Shown: positions 33,757 through 51,239 of the stretch, in pieces
Position numbering within the stretch: the first letter of the stretch is position 1
How the letters are laid out: every line of letters starts with the position of its first letter
Source of the DNA: a virus
Lineage: Duplodnaviria; Caudoviricetes
DNA length: 64,000 bases
IMG/VR virus record: IMGVR_UViG_3300038345_000144
Direction: 5' to 3' (one strand)
Made by a program: the position numbers and the translations under genes
Notes under the pieces: generated by a model
Told to the model about the DNA's origin: nothing
Databases searched by the model: none
The model's input: only the letters and a program-made list of their open reading frames with translations

Positions 33757-34133
33757 TGTCAACCTCCATAACTGGAGAACAGAACTGGAAACATCCAATT
33801 TTCCACAAACATTTTCTCCAAGAAAAACCCCCATTCACACGGGGAAGATACGGTAGATTTCATACTGGAAGGTGTAAACAATGAATAACCTCCGCAGATA
33901 CGGAGAATTCTTGAATATCCCGCAAAATAATGGTACTCGATTGATAAACCCCCAACAAGTGAGGAAGGTGTCCAGCGGTTTTAGAGTCGGTTGCTCTACC
34001 TGAAAAACCCCAGCAATAAGGGAAAGTGTGATGTCAGCATCTTGACCGAACAACCCCCAAAAAATGAGGAAAGCAGTCTAACCGTGTCCGAGCCTGGTGT
34101 ACTACCTGATAAACCTCCGAGAAATCGGAGAAG
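33757..34133 (-). CRISPR. degenerate type I-E-like repeat/spacer array 1 (7 repeats, no cas genes)
   Basis: + strand units GAnnAACCYCC-N-GRGGAA/GGAGAA starting near 33757, 33822, 33883, 33943, 34002, 34048, 34108; mostly ~60-bp period; reverse complement resembles GTTTTCCCCGC..GCGGGGGTGATCC. Confidence 0.75.
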
Positions 34134-34145
34134 TTAATTGATTTT

Positions 34146-34484
34146 TTAATCGTCTACGAGCATTTCCCAAGCCCTGTCGTCTTCTACTACCTTCTGGACC
34201 AAAATAAATGCTTTGAGAGCGTCAAACCAAGTAGAATTAACAAAGTTCTCGGCTTTACCCATAACCCAAACACCTTGATAGGTTAAATTGCAGGTAAAAT
34301 CATAGCCGTCAACTACTAACGGAACTTCATCAGTGTCCCAACCGTTTGCTTCTGCTGTCTTGTAGTCAAAGTGCTCGTCTTCTTTGACATACTGGGCAAA
34401 TGTCTTATAGGTCATCAATAACTCATAGTTATAACCAGAGTCATCACAAACCTCAATAATATCGTTATAAGGAATATAAGCCAT
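34146..34484 (-). CDS. hypothetical protein immediately upstream of array 1
   Basis: 112 aa; stop codon 12 bp before the first repeat. Confidence 0.75.
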   Translation of the reverse strand: MAYIPYNDIIEVCDDSGYNYELLMTYKTFAQYVKEDEHFDYKTAEANGWDTDEVPLVVDGYDFTCNLTYQGVWVMGKAENFVNSTWFDALKAFILVQKVVEDDRAWEMLVDD

Positions 34485-35212
34485 TATTCGTCCTCCTCAT
34501 CTGTTTCTTCACGCTCATCATAGTCACTCTGCTTGTAAGCATAATAGCCGTCTCCGAGGTCAATTTCTCTGCCATCATATCTTGAGATAAAGTGAGCAAT
34601 ACCGTCTACATCAATACACTCATCAACGATTGCGTCCATATCAAAAGAGATGGAACCATTCTTAACGAGTTCACGCATTTCAGACTTACCGAACTCCTGA
34701 ATGAACCACTCACCGTAACTGCTGTAATTATTGGCTACATCTTCAACGAGATAATCAACCAAGAGTTCTTCAGGGTCGTCTTTACCGATATATTTACCGT
34801 TCTCGTCAATCTCTTCTTCCTTGATTACACCAGCGTCAACACATTCCTGAATTAAGCGGTTCTCATAGGTTCCTGATACACGGTCAGGCTCGTCAGCGAT
34901 GTCACTGGCATAACCCTCGTAGTCTTCTCTACAATAGTCCTCAAACCAATCATCATCAACAGCATTGGATAAAATCCATTCAACAAATTCAGGTGTGAAG
35001 GCGTCAAGTCCTAAATCGTCCATACAGTTATCAATGTCTGCATAAGTAGCCTTTTTACCCTCATCTTCGGTAAGTACCCAGAATGTACCCTCTGGAGTTC
35101 TAAACTCTGTTGACCAGTCTTCGTAGCCCCACTCTTTAACCTGAATTTCTGACTCTTTAATGTCCAAATAATCAGCCAACAATTTTACTCTGTCTTTAAT
35201 GTTATCCAACAT
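34484..35212 (-). CDS. conserved phage-type acidic protein
   Basis: VLTEDE...DGIAHFISRYDGRE pattern; start MLDNI after GAGGAG. Confidence 0.75.
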   Translation of the reverse strand: MLDNIKDRVKLLADYLDIKESEIQVKEWGYEDWSTEFRTPEGTFWVLTEDEGKKATYADIDNCMDDLGLDAFTPEFVEWILSNAVDDDWFEDYCREDYEGYASDIADEPDRVSGTYENRLIQECVDAGVIKEEEIDENGKYIGKDDPEELLVDYLVEDVANNYSSYGEWFIQEFGKSEMRELVKNGSISFDMDAIVDECIDVDGIAHFISRYDGREIDLGDGYYAYKQSDYDEREETDEEDE

Positions 35213-35216
35213 AGTC

Positions 35217-35423
35217 TTACTCCTCATCATTAAAAATCTTATCTAACTTTGTACGCCAATCCATAGGAAATCCAGCATACATAGGACAACCCTCTGGTTT
35301 ACCCCATTCACCAAATTTCATAAAGATACACTTATCACAGCCTGTTTCTTCACAATAGGCAACCAAACCATAAGCACACTTACGAGCATATCTATCATTG
35401 TCATTAGGCTTCTTTTTAGTCAT
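35217..35423 (-). CDS. small Cys-rich protein
   Basis: YC..GCDKCIF..GC..PMDW; paralog of 38455..38634. Confidence 0.65.
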   Translation of the reverse strand: MTKKKPNDNDRYARKCAYGLVAYCEETGCDKCIFMKFGEWGKPEGCPMYAGFPMDWRTKLDKIFNDEE

Positions 35424-35793
35424 AACGCCACCTCGCTATATCTTCATATTCTACGGTGATTTCGGCTATATAATAATACTCGTTAGAGCCTGTTAAGCCT
35501 AATTCTTCAAAATCTGCCTTGATTATAAAAATCATACTGTTGTTGTCATAAAGAGCCTGGTTGACCTGTTCCTCGGTAAGCGTTCTACTGGGATTTGCTC
35601 GGTTGTACTCTTCAAGATTAACCAAGTTTGTTTTACCATCTCGACATCTGGAGATGAGATTATCGGTAATGATTTTTAGCGGGCTTATACGACACTCAAG
35701 GTCACTTAAATCACTATTGCTTAACATAGTGTTTTGAGGAATTTTGGGTAAGTGCTTGGTCAAATCAAACACGCCTCCTACTTTAATGTTCAT
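35416..35793 (-). CDS. hypothetical protein
   Basis: ORF with RBS. Confidence 0.7.
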   Translation of the reverse strand: MNIKVGGVFDLTKHLPKIPQNTMLSNSDLSDLECRISPLKIITDNLISRCRDGKTNLVNLEEYNRANPSRTLTEEQVNQALYDNNSMIFIIKADFEELGLTGSNEYYYIAEITVEYEDIARWRYD

Positions 35794-35804
35794 AAACTTA
35801 CTCC

Positions 35805-36113
35805 TTATAAATAATCGTGAACAAAGGTGTTAATCTTCTTTTTGTCCTCTTCAGAAACCTTATAGGTCTTAAAGAACTCTCTCAAAACATCAGATAACTC
35901 TGCGGGTCCAAATATTACACCATTATCATCGTCAATCATTTTATATCTTGGAGAATATCTGGAAAGCCATTTTTCGTCATCACACAGTATTCTGATGCCA
36001 TTATATTGTGTCTGGGCTTCCATATAGAAAGTATCGTTCAGACAACCCTGCTCATAGGCTCCGTCCTGAAAAAAGACATCAACGATTTCATTTTCTGATA
36101 CTTCGTGTGCCAT
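35805..36113 (-). CDS. hypothetical protein
   Basis: ORF with RBS. Confidence 0.7.
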   Translation of the reverse strand: MAHEVSENEIVDVFFQDGAYEQGCLNDTFYMEAQTQYNGIRILCDDEKWLSRYSPRYKMIDDDNGVIFGPAELSDVLREFFKTYKVSEEDKKKINTFVHDYL

Positions 36114-36123
36114 AGGCTTCTCC

Positions 36124-36432
36124 TTATTCTTCTACCAGTTTGCCAAGATAAGCAACTTGAGCGATTTTTCCCTCTAACTTGATATACTGTCTCAATTCTG
36201 GAGAGGGTTCAAAAGGCTTTAGACCTTTGTATTCCTCATCAAATATAGTTCTGATGTTTCCAAAATAATCAGTCAACAGAGATACTTCAAGTTCGTTATT
36301 GAAGATTGCTAACATCTCATCGTCAGCACCCTCGGTCATCCAATCCTCACAGCCTGCTAACTTTGCCTGCTCTGCACGGAACTGCCTGATTAAGGCACAC
36401 TGTTCTTTATTCAATATGTTGCCCATATTCAT
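36124..36432 (-). CDS. hypothetical protein
   Basis: ORF with RBS. Confidence 0.7.
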   Translation of the reverse strand: MNMGNILNKEQCALIRQFRAEQAKLAGCEDWMTEGADDEMLAIFNNELEVSLLTDYFGNIRTIFDEEYKGLKPFEPSPELRQYIKLEGKIAQVAYLGKLVEE

Positions 36433-36450
36433 ATCCTTTCGTTATACCAT

Positions 36451-36510
36451 TTATACCTGAAAGGGTATAATCTGTCCTAATTCCTGCTAAATCATACCCT
36501 ATCGGGTATA
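36451..36510. promoter_or_regulatory. pair of ATACC-N6-GGTAT palindromes 40 bp apart
   Basis: TTATACCTGAAAGGGTATAA (36451) and ATCATACCCTATCGGGTATA (36491). Confidence 0.45.
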
Positions 36511-36618
36511 TAAGGCTTGTAAATCCGTTTCTGTCGGACTTTCTCCAAACATTCTTTCAAATGTTTCAATCAGTTCAAGTCTTTTTTCTTTCTCTTCAGG
36601 GGTTAATTCTTTTTCCAT
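36499..36618 (-). CDS. 39-aa small protein (not in ORF track)
   Basis: MEKELTPEEKEKRLELIETFERMFGESPTETDLQALYTR; GAGG RBS; fills an operon gap. Confidence 0.55.
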   Translation of the reverse strand: MEKELTPEEKEKRLELIETFERMFGESPTETDLQALYTR

Positions 36619-36620
36619 AA

Positions 36621-37193
36621 TTAAACCTCATCATAATCTATTCCATTTTTCTCCAAACAATTAAGACCGTCCTTGTGAAGCATCATACGGTCTCCACTAT
36701 CATAGTCGTACCACAGACCCTCCTCATCAAGACATCTTTCAGCCTCGGCTCCGTCACCTGTTCTAAAGATTACTCTATAAACAGGGTCGGCATCGGGGTC
36801 ATAATCAAAATTCTCTTCAAGTTGGTCCAAAATGCTCTTAACCAGTTCATCTTTATTTGTAATACAAGACTCAAATTCTATATTGGTATTACGCTCCAGA
36901 TAAACAGGAAGGGTCTCAAAATCAGAGTCCAGATAAACATTCTCCAAAAAATTCTTTAAGTCTTCTGGGTCTTTGATAGTGCCTTCTTTTAATAAATAGT
37001 CTATCGTAGTCTGCTTATCTAATTTAATGAGAGGATATTCGATGATAATATCATCTGCTTCTGCCTCAAGGTCATTTGATATAACCCTAATTCCATTATC
37101 TAATATAAATTCGTGAGCCTCTGGTGGTAAAAAATCTAAAATGAAGTCTACCATACCACAAAACTCACAAAAGTTACCAATTATTTTTCCCAT
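36621..37193 (-). CDS. hypothetical protein
   Basis: ORF with RBS. Confidence 0.75.
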   Translation of the reverse strand: MGKIIGNFCEFCGMVDFILDFLPPEAHEFILDNGIRVISNDLEAEADDIIIEYPLIKLDKQTTIDYLLKEGTIKDPEDLKNFLENVYLDSDFETLPVYLERNTNIEFESCITNKDELVKSILDQLEENFDYDPDADPVYRVIFRTGDGAEAERCLDEEGLWYDYDSGDRMMLHKDGLNCLEKNGIDYDEV

Positions 37194-37218
37194 AATACGC
37201 TTCTCCTTTAATCTTTTC

Positions 37219-37548
37219 TTATCTATGCCAAACGCTTATAACAGCCTCATAAGCAGAATTAAAGATAGACAGAACACTGTCAGGGTGGGCTAATTGATAC
37301 TCATATTCAATATCCTTAACACCTTCAGCACTCTTTACGCCGATTGCTGTATGCTTAAACGCCTCTTTTAAGGCATCAAACGACTGATATGTATAAAAAA
37401 CATCATCCAGTACGCCATCTTCGGCTCTGTCTAATGCTTGGTGGACCACTCCCCACGGAACATCAGGTCTAACACCTAACTTCTTGGCAATTTTGTTCTG
37501 ATACTCTCTAAACGAGTGGTTGTCGTTGATTAACACGCAGTAATACAT
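37219..37548 (-). CDS. hypothetical protein
   Basis: ORF with RBS. Confidence 0.7.
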   Translation of the reverse strand: MYYCVLINDNHSFREYQNKIAKKLGVRPDVPWGVVHQALDRAEDGVLDDVFYTYQSFDALKEAFKHTAIGVKSAEGVKDIEYEYQLAHPDSVLSIFNSAYEAVISVWHR

Positions 37549-37562
37549 ATTAGTTCTCCTCC

Positions 37563-38057
37563 TTAAATCCTATTTTTTATCAGCCAAGATACTCCACCGT
37601 ATTTTGATGTATATACGCCTGCCTCTGCTGTTTCTTTCAAATCAGGGAAAACTTCCTTCAATAACTTAACCAGTCTTGGGTTATCGTCCTCTTGGAACTG
37701 AAGTGCTGTTTGTCTTGAAATGGTAATATTGCAAGAAGGCACACTGATTTCATCAAGTCTCTTGGCACACTGAACCAAGTTATTCAGGATGGTGTTATCT
37801 AAAGGCTGTTCGGTTACTTCGTTATCCCCTGTTCGATTTATCCAGTTAATGCCTCTATAACGGTAAACGCCATCGCCAACATCAGTTCCCTGACCGTTAA
37901 ACATCGCTTTGAAAGTAGCATTATCCTTGTAATATGTACCAATAATTGTACCAACGGCTATAAAACCATAACTGTTGATAATGCCCTTAATATAAGAACT
38001 TAACTCTTGGCATAAACAATTATCCCTGATGTTAATTAACTTCTGTTTTGAAATCAT
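37563..38057 (-). CDS. hypothetical protein, paralog of 32258..32782
   Basis: shared motifs with 32258..32782. Confidence 0.75.
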   Translation of the reverse strand: MISKQKLINIRDNCLCQELSSYIKGIINSYGFIAVGTIIGTYYKDNATFKAMFNGQGTDVGDGVYRYRGINWINRTGDNEVTEQPLDNTILNNLVQCAKRLDEISVPSCNITISRQTALQFQEDDNPRLVKLLKEVFPDLKETAEAGVYTSKYGGVSWLIKNRI

Positions 38058-38068
38058 AGGTCTTCTCC

Positions 38069-38443
38069 TTATCGGGTCATAAAGATAACAATTCTACCAC
38101 TTGAAAGGTAATATCCGTCCATTGAAGAAGGCAGGTTACATACCAAGAAATCACATAAAGACTTCTTTGAGTCTTCATTGTCCGTATAATCTAAATACTT
38201 TTTAAGCAATTCCTCGCCTGAAGTATGGTCAGCCCAATACTCTAAAAAGTCCTCATAATAATCAAACAACTGGAAGAATACCCAAGCGTTCTTATCAAAT
38301 CCTGTATAAGCACTGCCTATCATATCAAAGAGTTCTTCGGCTTCCGCAGGAGTTAGTTTATAAATTGTACCCCTTGCTCCCATATCATCTTCGGTAATAG
38401 TGGTTAGATATTTAATAAATTCGTCTTTGTCTTGTTTATTCAT
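38069..38443 (-). CDS. hypothetical protein
   Basis: ORF with RBS. Confidence 0.7.
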   Translation of the reverse strand: MNKQDKDEFIKYLTTITEDDMGARGTIYKLTPAEAEELFDMIGSAYTGFDKNAWVFFQLFDYYEDFLEYWADHTSGEELLKKYLDYTDNEDSKKSLCDFLVCNLPSSMDGYYLSSGRIVIFMTR

Positions 38444-38454
38444 ATTTGTTCTCC

Positions 38455-38634
38455 TTAATCAAACCAGCCAAAAGGTTGACCATATCCGTCGCTGTCCTCA
38501 AACATACAGGTACGGTATGGGTTGTTTTTCACATCGAAAGGACAACCAACACAACCTTCAGGCTCCTTATTTTTACAATACTCGGAAATGGCTCTTGCAT
38601 AAGCCATTAACTTTACGGCATTATCATCATCCAT
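38455..38634 (-). CDS. 59-aa Cys-rich protein (not in ORF track)
   Basis: MDDDNAVKLMAYARAISEYCKNKEPEGCVGCPF...C...QPFGWFD; AGGAG RBS; paralog of 35217..35423. Confidence 0.65.
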   Translation of the reverse strand: MDDDNAVKLMAYARAISEYCKNKEPEGCVGCPFDVKNNPYRTCMFEDSDGYGQPFGWFD

Positions 38635-38635
38635 A

Positions 38636-39958
38636 TTAGTCGTCTCCTTGTAATAGCGGGTTTTTTATTATAAATCCAATATAAACACAGTTTAGTTTAT
38701 CTGAAATAACATCACTATAATATTTCGCAGTATTGATTTTAATATTATTTTCTTTAAGTCTTGGTTTCAAAATGTCACATAGCACATCATCTAATTTATA
38801 ATCTAAAACTGTACCACTATCACTAAAATACACACAAAGGTCATAGCGATACTTCATAACATTTTTAGACATAGGAATAACCACTTCAGGTATATTGATT
38901 TTTAGGAATTCCCAATTAAAAAAACTGCTGAAATGTGAGCCATATTCGTCAGCAGAGGACAATACGGCAACTACATTAACTGGGTCCGTATTTACTACTA
39001 AAGCAGAGTCGCTCCAATCGTAATGTATAACCCTTTCAGTGCCATCATCGTCTTTATAAAAGTATGCACCTATGGTTAAAAGAAACTCTTTTTCAGTTTT
39101 TGCTTGAGGGGACGCACTGAAAAAATCATAGAACAAGTTTTCTAATGGCTCGCTTAAGTCCTCGGATTGAAGGGCTTTTGTGATTTCCTGTGTAATCTGT
39201 TTGGTATTTAAGTCTCCAAAGATTTCTTGTTGCTTTTCCTCTAATTCCCTCTTTGCTAACAGTTTCATACCATCCGAACTTCCCTCGATATAAACTGTAT
39301 AACCCTCAATAAACTTACTTGACCTACCACTCTCACCAGCACATCGTATATCCGTAGTAATAACCTTTTCAGGAATATTATCAATAAAAGGCTTAAATAT
39401 ACCTAAAGCATCTTTTATGATATGAACATCACTATAACTACAACCATTAACGGTACTATCCATATTGCGTTCTGCCTGTACGAATTTCTTGAATTCAGTG
39501 ATTTCCATATCAGTTAGAGCAATTGAGGTTGATTTGAATGTAATGGTATTAGAAAGTGGAAGAAAATCTGCTTCATCTCTTGCCCTTACACAAGCATATA
39601 GGTCATCTACGGGAAAATAACAAGCCGTTGCCGTATTATATTTAGGTACTTTGGTAAGGGTTTTATTGTCCTCATCCAATATATAATAATAGGCTTCCAT
39701 TGTATCAAGATATATGCCTTGTGGTTTTCCTAAAAAAGTAGAGGTAAACAAAAAGCCAAAGTGATATTGTTTATTATATGGGTGCAATTTATCTTCACGA
39801 TACATCTCTTTTTTACAGTTAACCACATTGAAGGATTGCATAGCGTCAGTAAACGCATCCTTCTCATTTGGAAATTTAGCAATAACGCTTTTTATTACTT
39901 CCTTATTAGTCTGGAAGTTAGTTTCCTGTCCTGCTTGTTTTAATCTCTCTAAATCCAT
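38636..39958 (-). CDS. hypothetical protein, paralog of 5291..6544
   Basis: 440 aa; MDxxxLKQ, FPxE and YxLD motifs; C-terminal IKNPL. Confidence 0.8.
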   Translation of the reverse strand: MDLERLKQAGQETNFQTNKEVIKSVIAKFPNEKDAFTDAMQSFNVVNCKKEMYREDKLHPYNKQYHFGFLFTSTFLGKPQGIYLDTMEAYYYILDEDNKTLTKVPKYNTATACYFPVDDLYACVRARDEADFLPLSNTITFKSTSIALTDMEITEFKKFVQAERNMDSTVNGCSYSDVHIIKDALGIFKPFIDNIPEKVITTDIRCAGESGRSSKFIEGYTVYIEGSSDGMKLLAKRELEEKQQEIFGDLNTKQITQEITKALQSEDLSEPLENLFYDFFSASPQAKTEKEFLLTIGAYFYKDDDGTERVIHYDWSDSALVVNTDPVNVVAVLSSADEYGSHFSSFFNWEFLKINIPEVVIPMSKNVMKYRYDLCVYFSDSGTVLDYKLDDVLCDILKPRLKENNIKINTAKYYSDVISDKLNCVYIGFIIKNPLLQGDD

Positions 39959-39969
39959 TACTAATCTCC

Positions 39970-40509
39970 TTATGCTCGCTTAACGAAATTCACTACGCTA
40001 TCCTGAACATTGTTTTTTATGCCATTAACGGTGAACAATTTTTCTTCTACCTTCGGAGGCTCAATATAGCCCTTTTCAAGGTTATAAAAAGCACCATAAA
40101 GCGTACCATCGTAAATCTTAATCAACTCTGCTTTGTCAAAAGTAACAAACTTGACCTTTGCATCGTTGATAGCGTCAAGATACATACAGACCCTTTCCTC
40201 AACAGTATGTCCAAGTTCTAAAGTGTTTTCTTTAGTAAACGCAGGACAAGGGTTATTATAATCGTTCAGGTCATAAAAACGAATACCAATAGCGGGATGT
40301 CCTAAAAACAAGCCCAAACAAAGTGTAAAGCCAGTATCTTCGGTAAAAGCAATATCAGGTTGCTTAACTACCGCATTTATTTGGTCAATTACCCAGTTTT
40401 CATACTCGTTTTCACGAAGTTGATTAGTTGGCTTGATGTTTGTTCCATCTAAAGATGTATCAATTCTGATAATCACTGTTTCTGTGTTATTCAAAGCGTG
40501 GTTGTTCAT
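39970..40509 (-). CDS. hypothetical protein
   Basis: ORF with RBS. Confidence 0.75.
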   Translation of the reverse strand: MNNHALNNTETVIIRIDTSLDGTNIKPTNQLRENEYENWVIDQINAVVKQPDIAFTEDTGFTLCLGLFLGHPAIGIRFYDLNDYNNPCPAFTKENTLELGHTVEERVCMYLDAINDAKVKFVTFDKAELIKIYDGTLYGAFYNLEKGYIEPPKVEEKLFTVNGIKNNVQDSVVNFVKRA

Positions 40510-40522
40510 AATAAGGCTCCTT

Positions 40523-41095: not shown

Positions 41096-41117
41096 ATTGG
41101 ATAGGTTCCTTCCTAAT

Positions 41118-41156
41118 ATTACATTTAGATTACATTTATATTACAAACAAATTACA
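41118..41156 (-). promoter_or_regulatory. four TGTAAT boxes at exact 11-bp period
   Basis: ATTACA on + strand at 41118, 41129, 41140, 41151. Confidence 0.7.
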
Positions 41157-41538: not shown

Positions 41539-41557
41539 AATCTTCTCCTTTCGTACA

Positions 41558-41593: not shown

Positions 41594-41598
41594 ACCTA

Positions 41599-41616: not shown

Positions 41617-41660
41617 ATTAAAACCCTGAATATTGGCAGTATTCGAGATTTACTGCTAAA

Positions 41661-41895
41661 AATCAGCCTCCGATAACGGAGAAAAACAATGTTAACTTCA
41701 CACTGCCAACCTGACTTTGAGAAACCTCCACGAACGGAGAAGTAATCCTGCGTGAGCATCCTACACACGGGGAAAAGTCTGATTGCGAAGTGTTCTTTGC
41801 ATCGGAAAGAATAACCCCCGTAAAACAGGGATAAAAAAATAATAAAGGGGATAGTTCAAAATTTGCCTCGAAAAACCTCCGAAAATTCGGAGAAG
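41661..41895 (-). CRISPR. degenerate type I-E-like repeat/spacer array 2 (4-5 repeats)
   Basis: units near 41661, 41719, 41754 (very degenerate), 41809, 41870; 41870..41916 is 44/47 identical to 34108..34154. Confidence 0.65.
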
Positions 41896-41914
41896 TTAAT
41901 TGATTTTTTAATCG

Positions 41915-42181
41915 TCATTCGTTAAGTTGGGCGATATAATCCATTATTTGCTTCACGGCAGAGTTGTCTACTGCCTGAATATTCCAGCCATCTTCTACAC
42001 ACTGAATTGCAGAAGTGTCCTGACCCTTCATATATGTAGTGTGGTTAGCAATAAATTCCCTGATTGTCTCATTGTCAATTTCACTTGCCTCACACTCATA
42101 CTCACGCTTAATCTCTTCGACCAATCTCTCAATATCAATCTCGATTGACGCACTTACTTCAATGGTTGTCCAATTACTCAT
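41915..42181 (-). CDS. hypothetical protein upstream of array 2
   Basis: 88 aa with RBS. Confidence 0.7.
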   Translation of the reverse strand: MSNWTTIEVSASIEIDIERLVEEIKREYECEASEIDNETIREFIANHTTYMKGQDTSAIQCVEDGWNIQAVDNSAVKQIMDYIAQLNE

Positions 42182-42193
42182 AGTAATTCTCCT

Positions 42194-42886
42194 TTACTTA
42201 ATATATCCTTTTTCAATAGCCAACTTAACAAGGGTCTGAACTGTCTTTACATCTGCATCTGAAGAACTAAAACCGTGACGATTGCAGAAGTCTCTCCTAA
42301 TTCCACAGGTTTCTGCAAAATCAAAGCCTACATCATTTGGACCATACTTGAGCCATTCAGCCTTTCTCTTTGGGGTAAGTTTGTTCAAATACTCCTGAAC
42401 ACGCTGAAAGATTTTGTCTTGGTTCTGAATAAGTATGTTGATGTAGTCAATATCGTTAATGTGGTAAGTGTCCCACATATAAGAAATTTGAGCAGAAACA
42501 TCAGGTCTGTTCATAAAACGAGCCGTCTCATTTATCCAATCACAAAGTCTCTCAATATCTGCCTGCTGAAGAATTCCTGTAAATTCCATCGGGTGCAGAT
42601 ATACATTTGCGGGTTCATATTGAGCGTCGGCAGGCTTAATTTCACAGCAACTACTGGAGTTGGGGTCTTTTTCTACAAAGAGTAACTTACCGAAGTAACG
42701 CTCCTTGATAATGGTACTCATAGTGTACTTTAAGGACTCTAACATCTTACGGAAGTCCTGAAAATCCTTGTCCGTTCTATATCTATCACCACAGTAATAC
42801 AAGCCGTTAATTCTAATCTGAAACTGCTTATAGTTGCTTATTTCCTTGTCGATTTCAATACAATTACTAAAGTTAATGCTTGCCAT
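42194..42886 (-). CDS. hypothetical protein
   Basis: 230 aa; YLHPMEFTG motif. Confidence 0.75.
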   Translation of the reverse strand: MASINFSNCIEIDKEISNYKQFQIRINGLYYCGDRYRTDKDFQDFRKMLESLKYTMSTIIKERYFGKLLFVEKDPNSSSCCEIKPADAQYEPANVYLHPMEFTGILQQADIERLCDWINETARFMNRPDVSAQISYMWDTYHINDIDYINILIQNQDKIFQRVQEYLNKLTPKRKAEWLKYGPNDVGFDFAETCGIRRDFCNRHGFSSSDADVKTVQTLVKLAIEKGYIK

Positions 42887-43113: not shown

Positions 43114-43130
43114 AAAGGGTCTCCTATTTA

Positions 43131-43499: not shown

Positions 43500-43511
43500 A
43501 GGTGTTTCTCC

Positions 43512-43709
43512 TTATTCTACGATAGACACATCACCCTCTAATGAAAGTGGTGGTTCTGTTTCTTCTGGTTTTGACTCCCGAATATCAATCGGGGGTCCAT
43601 ATACATCAACTTCAGGGGCTTCAGGTGGTACGCACCCTACCAACCCAAAAGTTGTACCTACTGCCAAAGCCAAAGCAGTAAAAGTTAATGGCTTTTTTGA
43701 CCTTTTCAT
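43512..43709 (-). CDS. small putative lipoprotein
   Basis: basic N-terminus, hydrophobic stretch, lipobox LVGC; VYGPP motif. Confidence 0.6.
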   Translation of the reverse strand: MKRSKKPLTFTALALAVGTTFGLVGCVPPEAPEVDVYGPPIDIRESKPEETEPPLSLEGDVSIVE

Positions 43710-44059
43710 TTAGCAATTCCTCCGTGGCTGGCAAAGTATTCCTGTCTGTTTTCGTGCCAGTTTTTCTCAACAACAAGTGTAGTAGTAGGATAGCCAAACT
43801 CTACTGAAATATGATGGGTACTTGAAAACCAAGCAATAATGTCCTGTTTAGCCTCATCATCAATCTCGAATTCAAGTTCTTTTAGCCCCTTTCGATTAGG
43901 AATATCAAGAGTACACCAACCAGTACCGTCATATTGTCCTAAATAATCAACCTCGCAAAAGTGTGAGGAAAAACCATATCCCTGTGAGGCTAAATATTCC
44001 TTAAATTCATTAGCGATTTCTTCAGTAATACCGCCGTTTCTTGTAGGAAATCTTGACAT
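43706..44059 (-). CDS. hypothetical protein
   Basis: ORF with RBS. Confidence 0.7.
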   Translation of the reverse strand: MSRFPTRNGGITEEIANEFKEYLASQGYGFSSHFCEVDYLGQYDGTGWCTLDIPNRKGLKELEFEIDDEAKQDIIAWFSSTHHISVEFGYPTTTLVVEKNWHENRQEYFASHGGIAK

Positions 44060-44070
44060 ATAGCCACCTC

Positions 44071-44478: not shown

Positions 44479-44491
44479 AATATTATCCTCC

Positions 44492-44887: not shown

Positions 44888-44898
44888 AGCGTCTCCTC

Positions 44899-45414
44899 CT
44901 ACTTCTTCCAGCACCAAAGAACGCCGTCTAACTCGACATCATCTAAAATAATAGCGTCATTTGGTATTGGATATTCCTGAATTTCCATATTGCCCTTGTA
45001 TTCTTCATAGTCCTCACTACCGCTTTCAATCATAGGCTCAATATAAGCGTCTACGACATCTACGGGAGCAGAACATAACCAAACACAATAGTTTCTATCC
45101 TCAATAACGGCATCAATAATTTTCTCCAGCACTTGTTGACACTGTTCTTCGGAGTCAAATAGTTTTGTGGCTTCCCAACCATCTTTCTCGGTTATAAGCG
45201 ACATTACTACCCCTCTTAATTGAGCGTTCAACTTATCTTTATAGTGTCTGTTGATAAACTCTAATGCCCCCAAATTGCCTAACTCCATAATTTCGTGGAT
45301 AAGCACTTCCTTTGGGTCGTGATAGCCCTCACCAAAAAGGCTATCATCACGATAGCCTTTCTTACTCTTATACATCTTTTGTGCATATTCACTGCAACTG
45401 GTAATGTCTAACAT
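44899..45414 (-). CDS. hypothetical protein
   Basis: start MLDIT after AGGAG. Confidence 0.7.
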   Translation of the reverse strand: MLDITSCSEYAQKMYKSKKGYRDDSLFGEGYHDPKEVLIHEIMELGNLGALEFINRHYKDKLNAQLRGVVMSLITEKDGWEATKLFDSEEQCQQVLEKIIDAVIEDRNYCVWLCSAPVDVVDAYIEPMIESGSEDYEEYKGNMEIQEYPIPNDAIILDDVELDGVLWCWKK

Positions 45415-45424
45415 ATTGTCTCCT

Positions 45425-45940
45425 TTAAGGTTGACCTTTGCATTGGAACCACTGTGGACAACTTGTACCCGAACAAGCAAGAGGACCGCCGTTATCACAA
45501 GCCATATTACCTATGGCTCCGTCATCATCCAGTATTTCGTTGATGATGCTCTCGTTTACCGTACCTCTAATCTTGTAGTCATCATCAAATCTGACGGCAT
45601 TGTTACTAATACCCTTTTCTTGCAACTGTGTAATAACATAGTCAGCAATATCAGCCCAGTATTCATCTTCTTGCTCGTCTGTAAGTTCCTCGTCAAGTCC
45701 AAGAGTGAATATGCCATCACCGTTCTCATACTTGCCTGCAACATCACTGACCGTAAAAGCAAGGTCAACACTATCTCCATTAAAGTACAGATTGAAGTAA
45801 ATGCGTATGCCCTCTTCCAAACTGCTCTTAATGTCTGCGGAAAGAACTCTGTTTACCTGTCTCCTGATATTTGACAATACCAAGAACTCGTCTATCAGAG
45901 TCTTCATTTCATTTAACTTATCTTCTTCGTAGCCTTTCAT
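45425..45940 (-). CDS. hypothetical protein with C-terminal Cys cluster
   Basis: CDNGG..CSGTSCPQWFQC. Confidence 0.7.
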   Translation of the reverse strand: MKGYEEDKLNEMKTLIDEFLVLSNIRRQVNRVLSADIKSSLEEGIRIYFNLYFNGDSVDLAFTVSDVAGKYENGDGIFTLGLDEELTDEQEDEYWADIADYVITQLQEKGISNNAVRFDDDYKIRGTVNESIINEILDDDGAIGNMACDNGGPLACSGTSCPQWFQCKGQP

Positions 45941-46332
45941 TTTTTACCACCTTCTACCATAGCCGACCTCAAAAGTGCGTGATGGTAGTTAAGGATAGCA
46001 GATGCAGGTGAACCCTGTTCATAGTACGCAAATGAGCCTAAATCAAGGTTTTCGGGGTCTTCAACGTCATCAAAGACCAAACTAATATCCCACTGTGGTA
46101 AATTTGCGTTGTCTTCTTCTTCCCAAGCACAATAAATACCCTCAACGGCATAGTAAGTCTTACCGCCTAATGTGATTTTATAGATAGGTTCATATACAAC
46201 TACAAAGTCCTTATCTCCGAACTCTTCACTGTTGACGATTTCCTCATCGGCATCAATGTAGGAGTCTGCTACTTCGTCGCTTACCAAATAAGCCTCAAGG
46301 TCTTCCATACGGTCAAATTCTTGAATTTTCAT
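45937..46332 (-). CDS. hypothetical protein
   Basis: acidic ORF tiling the operon. Confidence 0.7.
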   Translation of the reverse strand: MKIQEFDRMEDLEAYLVSDEVADSYIDADEEIVNSEEFGDKDFVVVYEPIYKITLGGKTYYAVEGIYCAWEEEDNANLPQWDISLVFDDVEDPENLDLGSFAYYEQGSPASAILNYHHALLRSAMVEGGKK

Positions 46333-46356
46333 TTCTTTAATTTCCTTTCGTTATTT

Positions 46357-46653
46357 TTACACAAGTTTTTCGTGCTTAATCTCAATATACTCTCCGTTAG
46401 CATAAGTAGCGTAGAGTTCGTCTTCAATGGCTTCCCACCAATCCGTGCCATACATCAGGCTGGCATAATTTGAAATACGAATTTGTCCCTGTGCATTTAC
46501 AGAAACCATATTCGGCACTTCTTCTATTGCCGTTGTGCTTTCAGGAAACTCTTTCTTGAGTTGCTCCCATACCTGTCTGGGGAGCCACAACTGATACTCA
46601 TTCTCGGTATCATCATAGACACTTACAAAATCATTTAACTTAATTTTTCCCAT
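46357..46653 (-). CDS. hypothetical protein
   Basis: ORF with RBS. Confidence 0.7.
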   Translation of the reverse strand: MGKIKLNDFVSVYDDTENEYQLWLPRQVWEQLKKEFPESTTAIEEVPNMVSVNAQGQIRISNYASLMYGTDWWEAIEDELYATYANGEYIEIKHEKLV

Positions 46654-46665
46654 AATCGTCTCCTT

Positions 46666-47040
46666 TTAATCTAAATGACATCTTGTATAGAACAATTCGT
46701 CAAAAGTCTTACCATCAATCTTCAGATTTTCCCTCACATAATCAATCTGTGGTCTCTGAACGGTTGTGCTTTGTACCATATAAGCAACAGGACAAATAAG
46801 GCTATCCCAGCCATCATATTTATCCCATTCTTTACGCATTTCAGGGTCTTTTGGTGTAACTAACCACCAACCACAATCAAGTCCCCACTTACTATGCTGT
46901 TCATCTCTGCCAAGTGTTTCCAGGTCAGTATAACCCATTTGTTTCAACATATACCCAATGATAGCATTTTCATTCTCGGTAGTGAAGTTTTCAATTATGG
47001 TTTCAATTTCTTCTTTTGAAGGGAATTTACGATTTGCCAT
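46666..47040 (-). CDS. hypothetical protein
   Basis: GLDCGW...QSTT motif; RBS. Confidence 0.7.
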   Translation of the reverse strand: MANRKFPSKEEIETIIENFTTENENAIIGYMLKQMGYTDLETLGRDEQHSKWGLDCGWWLVTPKDPEMRKEWDKYDGWDSLICPVAYMVQSTTVQRPQIDYVRENLKIDGKTFDELFYTRCHLD

Positions 47041-47051
47041 AGTTCACCTCT

Positions 47052-47384
47052 TTAAGTAACGCTCTTGATATATTCTTTAAGGTCTGAAATCTCGATTTCA
47101 ATATTAAACACAATCAAATCGCAAGCCAAATCAACCTCATCAATATAAACATCTGAAGGGTCTGTAAGAATTGTTACCAACCAGTCAAAGTCATTTTCAC
47201 TGAAGGTTTTATCACTATTCTGTGCGTTGGTAATTTCCTCTTGAGTAATTCCATTATCCAATGCAAAGTTAATGAAATCATCTTTCCAAACCAAGTCCTG
47301 CATACTGTCCCAGACATACTCTCGTAAGTCGGGTTTCTCAAAATAACTTGTCAAGTTACCCATTACTACTAAATTATATTTCAT
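47052..47384 (-). CDS. hypothetical protein
   Basis: ORF with RBS; resembles 59607 and 57322. Confidence 0.7.
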   Translation of the reverse strand: MKYNLVVMGNLTSYFEKPDLREYVWDSMQDLVWKDDFINFALDNGITQEEITNAQNSDKTFSENDFDWLVTILTDPSDVYIDEVDLACDLIVFNIEIEISDLKEYIKSVT

Positions 47385-47396
47385 AGCAATATCTCC

Positions 47397-47930
47397 TTAA
47401 AAAGTCTCTCCGATTACGCCTTCTACGAATTCTTTTACTTCATTAAAATCAAAGTCGTACTCTATTTTATCATATTCCTCATCGGTTAGTCCAATAATAG
47501 CCGTTGTAGAACCCATAGGAACATCGTGAGAAGACTCGCTACAAATCAAGGCTCTACCCTCAATATGATTTTTATAAATGAAGGTAGCCTCATAAGGTCT
47601 GCGGAGAACATCAAGTATCTTGTTGCAAACGGTATAGCCACTGGCTCCATTATATCTGCAACCATTAGCAAATACCAAATAATGTGAGTGGTTTCCAATC
47701 CAAGACTCTAAAAGGTCCGTACACTCAAGGTCATCAAAGTCAGCACTTTCGTACTCAATATAATCTTCTAAATTATTCTTGCTTACGGTATCACCATCAA
47801 CACTGTTATAACCGTCTTCGTCCCAATCACAACCAGCGTCTTTGATTTCCTGAATAGCCTCTGGGGTTAAATCATCTTTGAAACTGTAATAAGTACAAGC
47901 CTCAATAATATCCATCTTCTCGTATGCCAT
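47397..47930 (-). CDS. hypothetical protein
   Basis: YNGASGY and SSHDVPMG motifs; RBS. Confidence 0.75.
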   Translation of the reverse strand: MAYEKMDIIEACTYYSFKDDLTPEAIQEIKDAGCDWDEDGYNSVDGDTVSKNNLEDYIEYESADFDDLECTDLLESWIGNHSHYLVFANGCRYNGASGYTVCNKILDVLRRPYEATFIYKNHIEGRALICSESSHDVPMGSTTAIIGLTDEEYDKIEYDFDFNEVKEFVEGVIGETF

Positions 47931-47941
47931 AAGTATTCTCC

Positions 47942-48418
47942 TTAATTCGCCCTGTCTTTTAATGGGTTGACTATCTTAATGTGATAGGTATGAAAATAGC
48001 ACTTACTATCATCATCAATTCTGCCACCACAAGTTACACCGATAACCTTTATGCCCTCAAAGTCCTTAATGATAGACTCAATATGTGTTGCTAACATATC
48101 ATTTTGCCAATAGTTGTAGTCGTGTGGGTTTTGAATGTTATCAAATACTGGTCCTTCTATACGGGAGCCTGTGCTATTCATCTTGTCATAAAGATTGTAA
48201 TAAAAGGCAATATTACCACTTCCCGTTCTGGGTAAACCAACGCCAAAGAAGATGTCAAGGTTGTCATTTGAGGGTAACTCGCCTCTTTCGGTTACGCCTA
48301 CAAGATAATCACCAAATCTTTCCTCGGTTAATTGGTCGGTTATAGCCCTTTTGAGTTTTAACATAATTCCGCTATCGCCCTGATTTGCCTGTCTCATTCT
48401 GTCTGCTATACTTGGCAT
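47942..48418 (-). CDS. hypothetical protein, GIK...NPL family
   Basis: C-terminus GIKVI...IVNPL. Confidence 0.7.
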   Translation of the reverse strand: MPSIADRMRQANQGDSGIMLKLKRAITDQLTEERFGDYLVGVTERGELPSNDNLDIFFGVGLPRTGSGNIAFYYNLYDKMNSTGSRIEGPVFDNIQNPHDYNYWQNDMLATHIESIIKDFEGIKVIGVTCGGRIDDDSKCYFHTYHIKIVNPLKDRAN

Positions 48419-48430
48419 AAATGTTCTCCT

Positions 48431-48940
48431 TTAATATTTGAATTCTTCTTGGAATGTTTCAATAGAGATAATCGGTAAACCCGCATATATTTCTTGTAAG
48501 CCAACAACCAACTCATCATCAGGATTGTTACGGCTTTTTACTGATGGGAATTCAATCTCTGGTACTGGGTATGGATATTCCGCAGGGTCGCCTGTCATAA
48601 TGCCAGTATGTCTCTCTGGGATATATTCACCCTCCCACTCAAAGTCCACATCATCAACACTGACAGTAATGAAAATTGAGTAGAAATCAGAGTCCGTAGG
48701 CGAATAATCAACCCTCTTACCCGAAATCTTGCGAACATAGATAAGGTCATACTCGTCTACCTTCTCTTTAGGTATTTTTGTGACCTTTGTGTAGTAAGGA
48801 ATGATGAGAGCGTTCAATTTATTGATAAACGATATATCATTTACCATTTCCTCTGCTCTCTTAAAGGCGATGTCTGCCTGTTGACCCTTTTCTGCCTTTA
48901 ATTGAATGTGTATTGTCTGTATAAAATCAGTGGTCTCCAT
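48431..48940 (-). CDS. hypothetical protein
   Basis: ORF with RBS. Confidence 0.7.
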   Translation of the reverse strand: METTDFIQTIHIQLKAEKGQQADIAFKRAEEMVNDISFINKLNALIIPYYTKVTKIPKEKVDEYDLIYVRKISGKRVDYSPTDSDFYSIFITVSVDDVDFEWEGEYIPERHTGIMTGDPAEYPYPVPEIEFPSVKSRNNPDDELVVGLQEIYAGLPIISIETFQEEFKY

Positions 48941-48950
48941 AAAGTTCTCC

Positions 48951-49145
48951 TCATTTTGTTTGTAGATAAATTTTGTATGCCTCTTTGACTTTAGGGATAT
49001 TCATATAGCCGTTTTCTTTGTCTCCGCAAGGCTCCTTAACTACCTGCTCTAACGCCGTCATAAGTTCCTGACAACGACCTCTACCACAGGCTTTTACATT
49101 TCCCTGTTCGTCAAATACTTTTGCATACAATTCTTCAATAGTCAT
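48951..49145 (-). CDS. small hypothetical protein
   Basis: LYxxVFDxxGxVKACGRxxC pattern. Confidence 0.7.
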   Translation of the reverse strand: MTIEELYAKVFDEQGNVKACGRGRCQELMTALEQVVKEPCGDKENGYMNIPKVKEAYKIYLQTK

Positions 49146-49160
49146 AAACTTGGTCCTTTC

Positions 49161-49661
49161 TTAATCATACATATTACTTGGTGTAGTGTTAACAATCTCT
49201 CTTAACTTATCAACGGTATATACACCTCTCTGAATATCCTCGTATAGATGGTCAAAACAGTTGTCATTGATAAATGGAGAGTCAACTTCAACCTTTGTTG
49301 GTGTAAAATTGAAGAATACCGTAGCATAATCTCCGTACTGATGCCAACTATAATCGGTAATCTTGTGTTCTTTGATTTTCTTTATTAAATCTAATAATTG
49401 AGCATCATCAAACACTAATTGGTCTAACCCTTCGCTTCGGTCAAACAACAACATAAGGGTTGTTTCTTCGTTATAAGTGTCCCAAATCTGCCAGCAAGCA
49501 TTTTGAATATTATTCAAAGTCTGGAGGGATAATTCGCCTGCCAACTTTTCCCATTCTTGCATTTCCAGATAGGCTAAACAACTACATATTGTGTCTTCAT
49601 TAGCCCCTAACCACAATATATCGGCATCAGTAAGTCCATCTAAATACTTCCAACCGTACAT
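49161..49661 (-). CDS. hypothetical protein
   Basis: ORF with RBS. Confidence 0.7.
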   Translation of the reverse strand: MYGWKYLDGLTDADILWLGANEDTICSCLAYLEMQEWEKLAGELSLQTLNNIQNACWQIWDTYNEETTLMLLFDRSEGLDQLVFDDAQLLDLIKKIKEHKITDYSWHQYGDYATVFFNFTPTKVEVDSPFINDNCFDHLYEDIQRGVYTVDKLREIVNTTPSNMYD

Positions 49662-49671
49662 AAGTTACTCC

Positions 49672-49992
49672 TTAATCAAAACTTTCTATTTTTCTAAAAC
49701 AGGTTCTATCACAAAAATATGGCTTACCATTTGCTATGATAATGTCGGAGGTAGACATACTTCTGCCTTTATAATCGGCTGGGTGATGTTGATTAAACTC
49801 ACAAAAGAGCGACTCAAGATAATCATAAATATCAAGTAAGTCGGTCTCATCTACCCTGTTATATACCTTTTCATAGTTATCAGTAGTAAACTTAAAGCCA
49901 TTTTCGGTGCAGAACTCATAGTCCATAAAACCAAAAGTTCTAAACTGTGGGCAATCGTGTGGGATTTGCCAAATCTCAAATGCTACTATCAT
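49672..49992 (-). CDS. YodL-like domain protein
   Basis: IWQ...NYEKVY...LESLFCEFNQHHPADYKGRSMSTSDII...YFCD..F matches the YodL signature. Confidence 0.75.
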   Translation of the reverse strand: MIVAFEIWQIPHDCPQFRTFGFMDYEFCTENGFKFTTDNYEKVYNRVDETDLLDIYDYLESLFCEFNQHHPADYKGRSMSTSDIIIANGKPYFCDRTCFRKIESFD

Positions 49993-50003
49993 TTCCTATC
50001 TCC

Positions 50004-50075
50004 TTACTCTTCACTGCATAAGCACCAGAATAGTTCAATCCCTAATATCATAAATAGGGCAATTATTCCAGCCAT
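50004..50075 (-). CDS. 23-aa hydrophobic peptide (not in ORF track)
   Basis: MAGIIALFMILGIELFWCLCSEE; GAGGTG RBS; stop fused to the next RBS (TAAGGAG). Confidence 0.55.
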   Translation of the reverse strand: MAGIIALFMILGIELFWCLCSEE

Positions 50076-50113
50076 TCTTTTTCACCTCATTTAACCCAGT
50101 TTCCTTCGCCTAT

Positions 50114-50141
50114 ATTACATTTATGTTACATTTAGATTACA
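50114..50141 (-). promoter_or_regulatory. three TGTAAY boxes at 11-bp period
   Basis: minus strand TGTAAT-CTAAA-TGTAAC-ATAAA-TGTAAT. Confidence 0.7.
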
Positions 50142-50408
50142 TTACTCTAACTCAACATCGAGTATGCCGTCTGATGTAACATAGAAATTCTTGATATTTC
50201 GCATAGTAAGGGTGTTTTCAGCGTTCTGAATGGTTAATGCTGGACCTGTCAGGTAGGTTTTACCGTTATTATGGTCAATCTGAAACTTCAGCAGTTTATC
50301 ACCATTCAATAAACCCTCTGTTGCATTATTCTTCGACCAAATACGCACTTGACTGTTATTTTGGTCGCCATCTGGTCTGTAATGTAAAATCAATTCGCCT
50401 AACTGCAT
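50142..50408 (-). CDS. hypothetical protein downstream of array 3
   Basis: start MQLGE after AAAGGA; the longer track start lies inside a repeat. Confidence 0.7.
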   Translation of the reverse strand: MQLGELILHYRPDGDQNNSQVRIWSKNNATEGLLNGDKLLKFQIDHNNGKTYLTGPALTIQNAENTLTMRNIKNFYVTSDGILDVELE

Positions 50409-50434
50409 ATGTGTATTTCCTTTCTTATATATAA

Positions 50435-50935
50435 ATAGTGCCTCCATATCTGGAGAAATTTAGTTTTAACATAAGTCTTTATGTGTTCCCAAGAAAAACC
50501 TCCGAACAGAGAAATAGCGTACTATTAAGGGTGATGTTGTTTAGTCCACCGATAAACCCCCGTGTTCGGGGAAAAGACTCAAGGTATTTTTGCGTTGATT
50601 AGTCCAACCGAATAACCCCCCATATATACGAGGAAACCTAAACCATTCTGACTATATCAGGAGTACCGTCAGATAAACCCCCGTGTGTACGGAGAAACGG
50701 AAAAATTGGCTCTTTTTTGCATCATTTGTCCGAACAACCCCCGTGTGCGAGGAAACCGAGATTATCCATATATAAGTAGCAATACCCGTGGAATAACCCC
50801 CAATATTGGGGAAAACTCAAACGAAGATGTTATGGAAGTTATTTATGAGGAATAACCCCCGTGTTCGGGGAAAATAACCTCCACCAGTTTGTTTTATGCC
50901 AAAATAAGAATAACCATCAATGATACGGGTCATAA
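50435..50935 (-). CRISPR. type I-E-like repeat/spacer array 3 (9 repeats, 32-35 nt spacers)
   Basis: units near 50435, 50493, 50551, 50610, 50672, 50732, 50791, 50850, 50908; best copy on minus strand TTTTCCCCGAACACGGGGGTTATTC; 58-62 bp period. Confidence 0.85.
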
Positions 50936-51201
50936 ACAATCCTACCACCCGTAATACGAGCATTTGTTATAGATATACGATGTTGAGAAAATCCTCTTGT
51001 AAGCACATCTGCATCTACATAAAACTTTTTACCATCGGCTCCCTCAATCTCGTATGAAGAAATCTCCTTTTGAGGATATTTCCACGGCTGGATAGAGTGT
51101 TCTATCATAGCCTTACCCGTCCACTTACCCTCTTTTTCGAGTTGACCGATAATTCTATAATCCTGTTGAGGTATGTTTTGAACATTGTAATAAACTACCA
51201 T
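50917..51201 (-). CDS. 94-aa protein embedded between two CRISPR-like repeats
   Basis: GGGAGGAG RBS directly after repeat 51214..51239; stop codon inside the repeat at 50908. Confidence 0.75.
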   Translation of the reverse strand: MVVYYNVQNIPQQDYRIIGQLEKEGKWTGKAMIEHSIQPWKYPQKEISSYEIEGADGKKFYVDADVLTRGFSQHRISITNARITGGRIVYDPYH

Positions 51202-51213
51202 TCAGCTCCTCCC

Positions 51214-51239
51214 GAATAACCCCCAAATATTGGGGATAA
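51214..51239 (-). repeat. solitary type I-E-like repeat (first unit of array 3)
   Basis: GAATAACCCCCAAATATTGGGGATAA, nearly identical to the copy at 50791. Confidence 0.8.

Follow-up and report, generated by a model that had tools for sequence, protein, structure and literature searches.

A 64,000-nucleotide stretch of DNA from a virus record (IMG/VR record IMGVR_UViG_3300038345_000144; Duplodnaviria, Caudoviricetes), hereafter referred to as the window, contains three clusters of short hairpin-forming repeat units that resemble type I-E CRISPR arrays. The sequence-only reading of this DNA had suggested that they could be a cas-less library of CRISPR RNA (crRNA) mimics, which would decoy the Cas6 and Cascade proteins of the host or redirect them to competitors or host genes. 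Here, we propose that the arrays are genuine type I-E crRNA arrays, read through from upstream operons and serving an adaptation-less Cascade-Cas3 system encoded by the element itself; the probability of this reading is estimated at about 0.78. It is carried by the anatomy and orientation of the units, the constraint on their RNA structure, their homology to canonical type I-E repeats, the cas genes of a near-identical relative and the turnover of spacers between strains. The element to which the window belongs is a mobile, plasmid-like or phage-like entity of ~400 kb from the rumen and gut of cattle and sheep, and that it has Cascade-Cas3 genes of its own is judged from this relative.

Under this proposal, the arrays, which are located at the 3' ends or in the interiors of operons and in the sense direction, would be read through from upstream promoters. 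The Cas6e protein of the element would bind each hairpin and cut at its 3' base, yielding crRNAs of ~60 nt with a G/UUWWUC 5' handle, a guide of 32-34 nt and a 3' hairpin, and the guide-loaded Cascade would recruit Cas3 to matching DNA, presumably in competing mobile elements, phages or host loci. The repeats would not be homogenized because Cas1-Cas2 copying of the first repeat would not take place, and they would be held only by the needs of Cas6e and Cascade, namely the U-G closing pair, the C-G pairs, the paired positions 3 and 6, and the UU..UC handle. A spacer and its downstream repeat would move as a cassette, and the arrays would change by recombination between arrays or between strains within the conserved GGRGG-TTATTC segment rather than by classical acquisition.

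Repeat units and constraint on their RNA structure

By direct reading of the minus strand, the window units have the form TT-[UCYYCR]-loop(3-8)-[YGRRGG]-UUWWUC. Twenty-one hairpin units were recognized (seven in array A, five in array B, eight in array C and one solitary unit, D1; Table 1), all in gene sense. The genes of the window are all encoded on the minus strand and separated by gaps of 10-14 nt, and the units, which are found in three longer intergenic stretches of these otherwise tightly packed genes, are therefore in operon sense, in agreement with the orientation previously described. The clusters at three loci reported earlier were recovered as well; the count of about 22 units is refined to 21 clear units plus remnants, and the third locus (50435-51239), formerly taken as one array, is resolved into the eight-unit array C and a separate solitary unit.

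The intervals between units in array A are 60, 46, 59, 60, 61 and 65 nt, and over the three arrays 14 of 17 intervals measure 58-62 nt, the remaining ones being 46, 65 and 90 nt. The spacers are 30-34 nt long and unique within the window, since BLAST of the spacers against it returned only the arrays themselves; the ~60-bp period claimed previously is borne out by the unit coordinates, with unique spacers of ~32-34 nt. Two features expected of type I-E arrays are present, i.e., regularly spaced unique spacers of ~32-33 nt and a repeat of ~28-29 nt with a GC-rich hairpin and a 7-8-nt handle. A third one, the identity of repeats within an array, is absent: no identical pair exists among 19 model-detected cores (the sequence-only reading had noticed almost none), and the units vary in their stems, loops and the middle of the handle.

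Table 1. Positions of arrays, units and associated features (window coordinates unless a scaffold is named)
Feature	Position	Strand	Remarks
Array A	33754-34137	minus	7 units, 6 spacers; starts 8 nt past the stop codon of open reading frame (ORF) 34146-34484
Units A1-A4	A1 34105-34137, A2 34045-34076, A3 33999-34029, A4 33940-33971	minus	
Units A5-A7	A5 33880-33912, A6 33819-33851, A7 33754-33784	minus	
Array B	41658-41899	minus	5 units; covariance-model E 1.8e-7 to 0.015
Units B1-B5	B1 41867-41899, B2 41806-41837, B3 ~41750-41780, B4 41716-41746, B5 41658-41688	minus	
Array C	50432-50877	minus	8 units, periods 58-62 nt; covariance-model E 3e-9 to 0.02
Units C1-C4	C1 50847-50877, C2 50788-50818, C3 50729-50759, C4 50669-50701	minus	
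Units C5-C8	C5 50607-50640, C6 50548-50578, C7 50490-50518, C8 50432-50462	minus	C8 terminal
Repeat remnants	50878-50916	minus	flanked by C1 and by the stop codon of ORF 50917-51201
Solitary unit D1	51211-51242	minus	ATCCCCAATATTTGGGGGTTATTC; covariance-model E 0.0076
5' junction of array A	34133-34151	minus	GATTAAAAAATCAATTAAC; takes in the upstream ORF's stop codon
5' junction of array B	41895-41913	minus	identical to the array A junction, GATTAAAAAATCAATTAAC
Sigma-70-like promoter (putative)	33733-33762	minus	TTGACA-18-AATAAT; consensus match only, 11/12 positions
cas operon L291	ERZ919351:scaffold_1, ~371-378 kb		cse1 526 aa, cse2 168 aa, cas7 432 aa, cas5 184 aa, cas6e 193 aa, 60-nt gap, cas3 800 aa

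A covariance model was built from 8 window units and scanned over the 64-kb window. The units were aligned by anchoring on the 3' arm in combination with this model, because MAFFT alone misaligned the 5' stem arms across differing loop lengths. The scan recovered 11 further units at an expectation value (E) below 0.04, all of them minus-strand and confined to these loci, and no credible units in the other ~60 kb of the window; the next-best hit, at 43942-43974 (minus strand; E 0.058) within ORF 43706-44059, is probably a chance match or a relic. An independent scan with a regular expression and a hairpin requirement likewise returned three clusters on the minus strand, the plus strand being free of them. 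Within array A the E values range from 6e-7 to 0.02 with a weak A3 (E 1.3), whereas in array B the degenerate unit B3 was missed by the model, and in array C the stem of C7 is shortened. The remnants upstream of C1 consist of GGTTATTC, a spacer of ~25 nt and GGAGGTTATT, and lack the 5' stem arm throughout; at their position, the first repeat of other strains is complete and directly adjoins the stop codon (L274 compared with L273 and L275-L282). The solitary unit D1 is located directly upstream of the ribosome-binding site of ORF 50917-51201, which separates it from array C, and is present only in the window's own strain, where the intergenic gap is 40 nt versus 12 nt in other strains. A role of the GGAGG segment as a sequestered Shine-Dalgarno site was considered and rejected, as internal units have no start codon after them.

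The hairpins were further compared in a set of 56 distinct units, taken from the window and from seven related strain loci. Each of the 335 stem cells forms a standard pair; pair 3 is CG in 32 units, UA in 21 and, as an intermediate, UG in 3, pair 6 is GC in 40, AU in 12 and GU in 3, and the closing pair is U-G without exception. None of 500 shuffles reached the observed covariation score and every slid register scored worse, although the alignment is fitted to the model and the units share descent, so that independent compensatory events are fewer than the cell counts imply. The stems named in the sequence-only reading (CCCCG/CGGGG, CCCCAA/TTGGGG, CTCCGA/TCGGAG, CTCCG/CGGAG and CTCCA/TGGAG) are every one present, and the covariation that it had read as selection on structure is seen here as CG/UA and GC/AU exchanges. 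The minus-strand RNA folds better than the plus-strand RNA for most units (e.g., -7.7 versus -1.2 and -6.5 versus -0.5 kcal/mol), and the orientation is fixed as sense RNA because G-U pairs turn into C-A mismatches on the opposite strand. The stem and UU..UC have a high information content and the loop a low one, and just past the handle it is close to nothing. These data support selection acting on RNA structure in the sense RNA rather than simple decay.

The terminal units of the arrays keep the hairpin and have lost the handle, which is replaced by TTGACAC in A7, CTGATTT in B5 and CACTATT in C8, whereas all internal units except the degenerate B3 retain UUNNUC. In a related genome described below (G001), the last units of the arrays are likewise hairpin-bearing and devoid of the handle. 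Since a terminal handle serves no guide, its loss in the last units only is a prediction of function and not of random decay.

The arrays appear to be transcribed together with the operons in which they are embedded, by read-through from upstream. Arrays A and C start within ~10 nt of the upstream stop codon and array B at most 15 nt from it, which leaves too little room for a leader at any of the three. An identical 22-nt junction precedes arrays A and B behind non-homologous upstream ORFs, with two exact copies in the window versus 0.14 expected by chance. At the other end, array C stops ~25 nt short of the start codon of ORF 50142-50447 and continues directly into the ribosome-binding site of this gene. 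At the end of array A, the -35 box of the sigma-70-like promoter match and the handle position of A7 overlap; this putative promoter probably drives ORF 33137-33700. One gene downstream of arrays B and C, at 41118-41145 and 50114-50141, the minus strand carries the motif TGTAAT with an 11-nt period (TGTAATNTAAATGTAAT, overlapping copies; 4 close matches versus 0.27 expected by chance), and these sites may represent an operator or promoter element.

The cas genes of the lineage and their relatives

No cas genes were found in the 64-kb window, and in this sense the arrays are cas-less as originally described, but the description fails for the lineage. The 94-aa protein encoded beside array C occurs letter for letter, in the same gene order, at ~219 kb of the ENA scaffold ERZ919351:scaffold_1 (407,848 bp), the array C locus of which (L273) is syntenic with the window, the flanks of the strain copies being 93-98% identical. 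The same scaffold encodes a complete cse1-cse2-cas7-cas5-cas6e-cas3 operon (L291; Table 1) ~152 kb from the array C locus. Its Cas3 has Pfam matches for the HD, DEAD and C-terminal domains, the match of Cse2 is weak, and Cas6e matches the solved Cse3 of the T. fusca Cascade (E 7e-8). Neither cas1 nor cas2 was found within ~10 kb of the operon, and the covariance model detected no arrays in the 21 kb around it. The sequence-only reading had held that a cognate cas operon accompanied by perfect repeats would reveal the units as inert remnants; the operon exists, but in this lineage no perfect-repeat array stands beside it, and the window arrays give no impression of being inert. Between cas6e and cas3, the 60-nt gap (L291:12431-12490) contains two repeat-like hairpins, CCCCGCUUCGGUGGGG and UCCUUGUAUUACGGGG-UAUAAACA, neither of which is detected by the covariance model; the second one stops just before the start codon of cas3.

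The connection to canonical systems is provided by a contig (L151/L293) with cas7, cas5, cas6e, a cas2-cas3 fusion, cas1 and an AT-rich leader, followed by 23 identical 28-nt repeats with a 61-nt period. This repeat, GTTTTCCCCGTGCGAGCGGGGGTTATTC, equals the consensus of the window units. The Cas7 protein of L151 is 56% identical to Cas7 of the window's lineage, and on a second contig, which encodes the L151 Cas1, a radical-SAM gene is located a short distance upstream of cse1, an arrangement also seen in L291. The covariance model derived from the window units matches both the L151/L293 repeats and the 16 nearly identical repeats located between cas6e and cas3 on contig L284. A scan of species genomes with a three-repeat pattern identified true type I-E arrays in Streptomyces and Kitasatospora (L040), the repeats of which, GTCGGCCCCGCGCTCGCGGGGGTTGCTCC, show a hairpin followed by GGGGG-TTGYTC. 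The Kitasatospora repeats end with ...GCGGGGGTTGCTCC, and the layout is that of the window units. All multi-copy matches among the species genomes belong to Actinomycetota and have the handle TTGCTCC. Many metagenome matches to the same pattern were set aside on account of ~30-nt or other unrelated periods. Judged by layout, consensus and model matches, the window units are homologous to canonical type I-E repeats, and the type I-E-like character attributed to them from the outset is upheld.

The gene order cse1-cse2-cas7-cas5-cas6e plus cas3 is the same in the window's lineage as in L151/L293 and in canonical type I-E systems (E. coli K-12, T. fusca, Streptomyces/Kitasatospora), and so are the repeat layout (a short 5' flank, then a GC-rich stem of 6-7 bp with a small loop, and a handle of 6-8 nt) and the period of 59-61 nt. 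Unlike these systems, the window's lineage has no cas1 or cas2 near the operon, no leader and no identity between repeats, its arrays are dispersed and sense-oriented within operons, and its proteins are very divergent.

Additional relatives were found at larger distances. Of 112 window proteins, 28 have counterparts with 24-54% identity in the IMG/VR record G001 (467,383 bp with terminal repeats, called complete, 27% GC). This record encodes cse1, cse2, cas7, cas5 and cas6e followed by a five-unit heterogeneous array and a cas2-cas3 fusion, and has further heterogeneous arrays at ~20, 36, 37, 424 and 433 kb, all on a single strand; no Pfam match for Cas1 was obtained across the genome. In the Cas2-Cas3 fusions of G001 (L261:6271-8982) and L151 (L151:2467-5169), a Cas2 domain of the type I-E variety (PF09707) is located on the N-terminus of Cas3. 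The Cas7 proteins of the group form 63 clusters with 48-98% identity to Cas7 of G001, on contigs of up to 532 kb, whereas bacterial Cas7e proteins are only ~25% identical to them. These relatives form a series that leads from L151, with a complete system and identical repeats, through L284, with an array of near-identical repeats at the cas locus, to G001, with heterogeneous arrays and no cas1, and finally to the window's lineage, with no cas1 or cas2 domain and only dispersed heterogeneous arrays.

Spacer turnover and alternative explanations

Gut runs of bovine and sheep origin, from 12 studies, contain the element, no RNA run being listed among them, and nine strain copies of the array C locus could be compared. 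Despite flanks that are 93-98% identical to the window, their spacers are largely different. The two 3'-terminal units and their spacers are common to nearly all strains while the 5' part varies, and several spacers recur among strains in differing combinations. When the upstream neighbor of a spacer changes, the spacer retains its downstream repeat variant; for example, the spacer CACGGGTAT... is always followed by the UCCUCG...CGGGGG hairpin. The array of L280 corresponds to that of L277 with one additional 5' unit, the repeat of which has a CUCCG/CGGAG stem versus CCCCG/CGGGG in the first repeat. In other strains, arrays A and B have been replaced as well, as seen from contig comparison, and around array B their contigs either break or carry different sequence between 41726 and 41927; a search for strain copies of these two arrays via exact flanking proteins returned only the window's own sample or nothing. 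In one strain, the trailer spacer shared by nearly all others is inverted (L279:1703-1735 versus window 50523-50556), a 28-nt core being flipped between intact repeats.

Two other strain differences concern neighboring genes. ORF 38636-39958, which encodes a 440-aa protein without Pfam or PHROG match, is missing from the strains of runs X5 and X13, the contigs of which join cleanly across a 1515-bp skip (window 38444-39960), and it may be a mobile or accessory gene. The strains of three runs (X2, X5 and X13) have ~440 extra letters at 42184-42188, between ORF 41915-42181 and ORF 42194-42886.

Several observations weigh against reading the arrays as working crRNA arrays of the element. The cas operon was read on a closely related scaffold and not in the window's own genome, where its presence would be predicted by synteny with the relative. 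Protospacers were found for none of the spacers in phage, plasmid or IMG/VR sequences, and hence neither a target nor a protospacer-adjacent motif: compared at E up to 10 with 50,697 phage records, arrays A and C and the L280 array C gave only chance-level matches (best E 0.4), array C had no match among 72,556 plasmids, and five spacers, including one common to nearly all strains, had no matches in IMG/VR as exact 24-27-mers. A comparison of 43 extracted spacers with the window, G001 and the related loci returned only other array copies and no self-targets. The covariation may stem from a few ancestral repeat types (GGGGG, GGAGG) and not from many independent compensatory events, and B3, C7 and the remnants at 50878-50916 are degenerate, so some decay happens. 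Finally, the extra repeat of L280 is no copy of the first repeat, and classical acquisition therefore fails to explain the turnover; recombination is the route that we infer in its place.

The decoy or hijacking function initially proposed, in which the units would mimic type I-E crRNAs of the host and sequester or redirect its Cas6e and Cascade, is considered very unlikely. Viral solitary repeat units and mini-arrays are known (PMC11656645), and the window resembles them in its short arrays, its solitary unit at 51211-51242 and the absence of cas genes, the nearest of which are far away in the relative. However, the carriers of RNA anti-CRISPRs and mini-arrays would be expected to lack effector genes, whereas this lineage encodes its own complete interference module of Cascade and Cas3, and the distance of its Cas7 clade from bacterial Cas7e makes cross-use with a host system not obviously possible. 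Known viral mini-arrays have one or two spacers, repeats identical to those of the host and a dependence on host Cas proteins (PMC11656645), unlike the arrays considered here, with up to 7 spacers each and no two repeats in agreement; because the repeats all differ, at most one of them could equal any single host repeat. No host array with these repeats was identified, the multi-hit genomes of the pattern scan being all Actinomycetota with a different handle, and a decoy would need neither the constant 32-34-nt spacers nor the decay of terminal handles with internal ones kept. The replacement of spacers between nearly identical flanks is also more in keeping with guides in use than with a decoy library of fixed content. 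The least probable explanation is that the units are inert, decaying remnants of former arrays after the loss of adaptation genes. It would account for the lack of cas1 and cas2 near the L291 operon, for the degenerate or truncated B3, C7 and 50878-50916 segments, and for the heterogeneity of the repeats as a product of decay, but it is contradicted by the complete stem pairing across 56 distinct units with two-sided changes, by conserved handles and stems beside free loops, by spacer turnover that far outpaces flank divergence, and by the retention of C8 and of the 3'-end spacers across strains.

It is also improbable that the units mainly serve as processing, stability or termination signals of long operons, which Cas6e or another RNase would cut or protect, with the spacers as mere linkers. 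The sense orientation within or at the ends of operons, the position of D1 just upstream of a ribosome-binding site and the two hairpins filling the cas6e-cas3 gap of L291 agree with such signals, and 11 units pass a loose terminator scan owing to the U-rich handle; yet the runs of U are brief and broken up (UUAUUC, UUUAUC), the units follow one another in 60-nt steps, array C leads straight into a ribosome-binding site, and mRNA processing does not need a strict ~60-nt period with linkers of type I-E guide length. Moreover, the linkers are swapped between strains for unrelated sequences of equal length, and the units are homologous to canonical arrays beside cas genes. An mRNA-signal role could be a secondary function of the same elements. 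Tentatively, and with considerable doubt, a more elaborate version of the crRNA-array reading may be put forward, in which spacer-repeat cassettes, each with a repeat variant of its own, in many operon-embedded mini-arrays form a non-repetitive, hard-wired guide system that gains, loses and exchanges them by Cas1-free recombination and in which repeat diversity itself is selected, whether by guarding the arrays of a highly recombining element from recombinational collapse or by escaping repeat-mimicking inhibitors. In this version the hairpins would also be Cas6e cut sites shaping the operon mRNAs, as suggested by D1 before a ribosome-binding site and by the hairpins in the cas6e-cas3 gap.

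Relation to known systems and significance

Apart from the arrays, the window encodes a sortase-dependent pilus operon (16613-27458). Besides the sortase and an S26 signal peptidase, its products include pilins of the SpaA/FctA type and an adhesin-like protein of 2339 aa in which Listeria-Bacteroides repeat and DUF285 domains occur; the operon points to a Gram-positive host. A 298-aa protein encoded at 3504-4400 is similar to Fe-S oxidoreductases and radical-SAM proteins (phrog_16999, E 3e-37) and has a 54% identical homologue in G001. The window showed no similarity to phage records, and an exact 47-mer search for it had no match in IMG/VR, the JGI metagenomes or the GTDB genomes. No Pfam matches for Terminase_6N or the HK97 capsid were found in G001.

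CRISPR systems of mobile elements with compact arrays and no adaptation genes are known (PMC7162821, PMC11656645). The systems of huge phages and large plasmid-like elements (Al-Shayeb et al. 2020, PMC7162821; PMC11656645) resemble the one described here in their location on a large gut mobile element, in a full interference module without cas1 or cas2 nearby, and in short arrays, those of the window having 4-7 spacers. Unlike in those systems, the window's lineage has no array at the cas locus, its arrays being distributed over operons as far as ~150 kb away from the cas genes, and each window repeat is a different variant kept together by compensatory changes. No description of dispersed arrays with all-different repeats was found in the literature searched, a scope that excludes Al-Shayeb et al. 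2022 (Cell).

Plasmid type IV-A3 systems, which have no adaptation genes, borrow the Cas1-Cas2 proteins of host type I-E systems in trans (bioRxiv 10.1101/2023.06.23.546257; summarized in PMC11656645). They share with the present arrays a location on mobile elements, the lack of an own adaptation module, array differences between isolates and, probably, a role in conflicts between mobile elements, whereas their effector is DinG and not, as in the window's lineage, Cascade plus Cas3. The window repeats are heterogeneous, another difference from type IV-A3, and this speaks against copying of the first repeat by Cas1-Cas2.

If the arrays are functional, their dozens of natural repeat variants would amount to a mutational scan of the requirements of Cas6e and Cascade for stem pairs, the closing pair and the handle bases, and they would represent natural non-repetitive multiplex guide arrays of the kind that engineers build by hand against recombination. 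The strain turnover without Cas1-Cas2 copying of repeats would then point to recombination as a second way in which mobile elements renew their guides. Because standard CRISPR finders depend on identical repeats, they overlook whole sets of such arrays, and the guide repertoire of mobile-element CRISPR systems in gut metagenomes is under-counted as a consequence.

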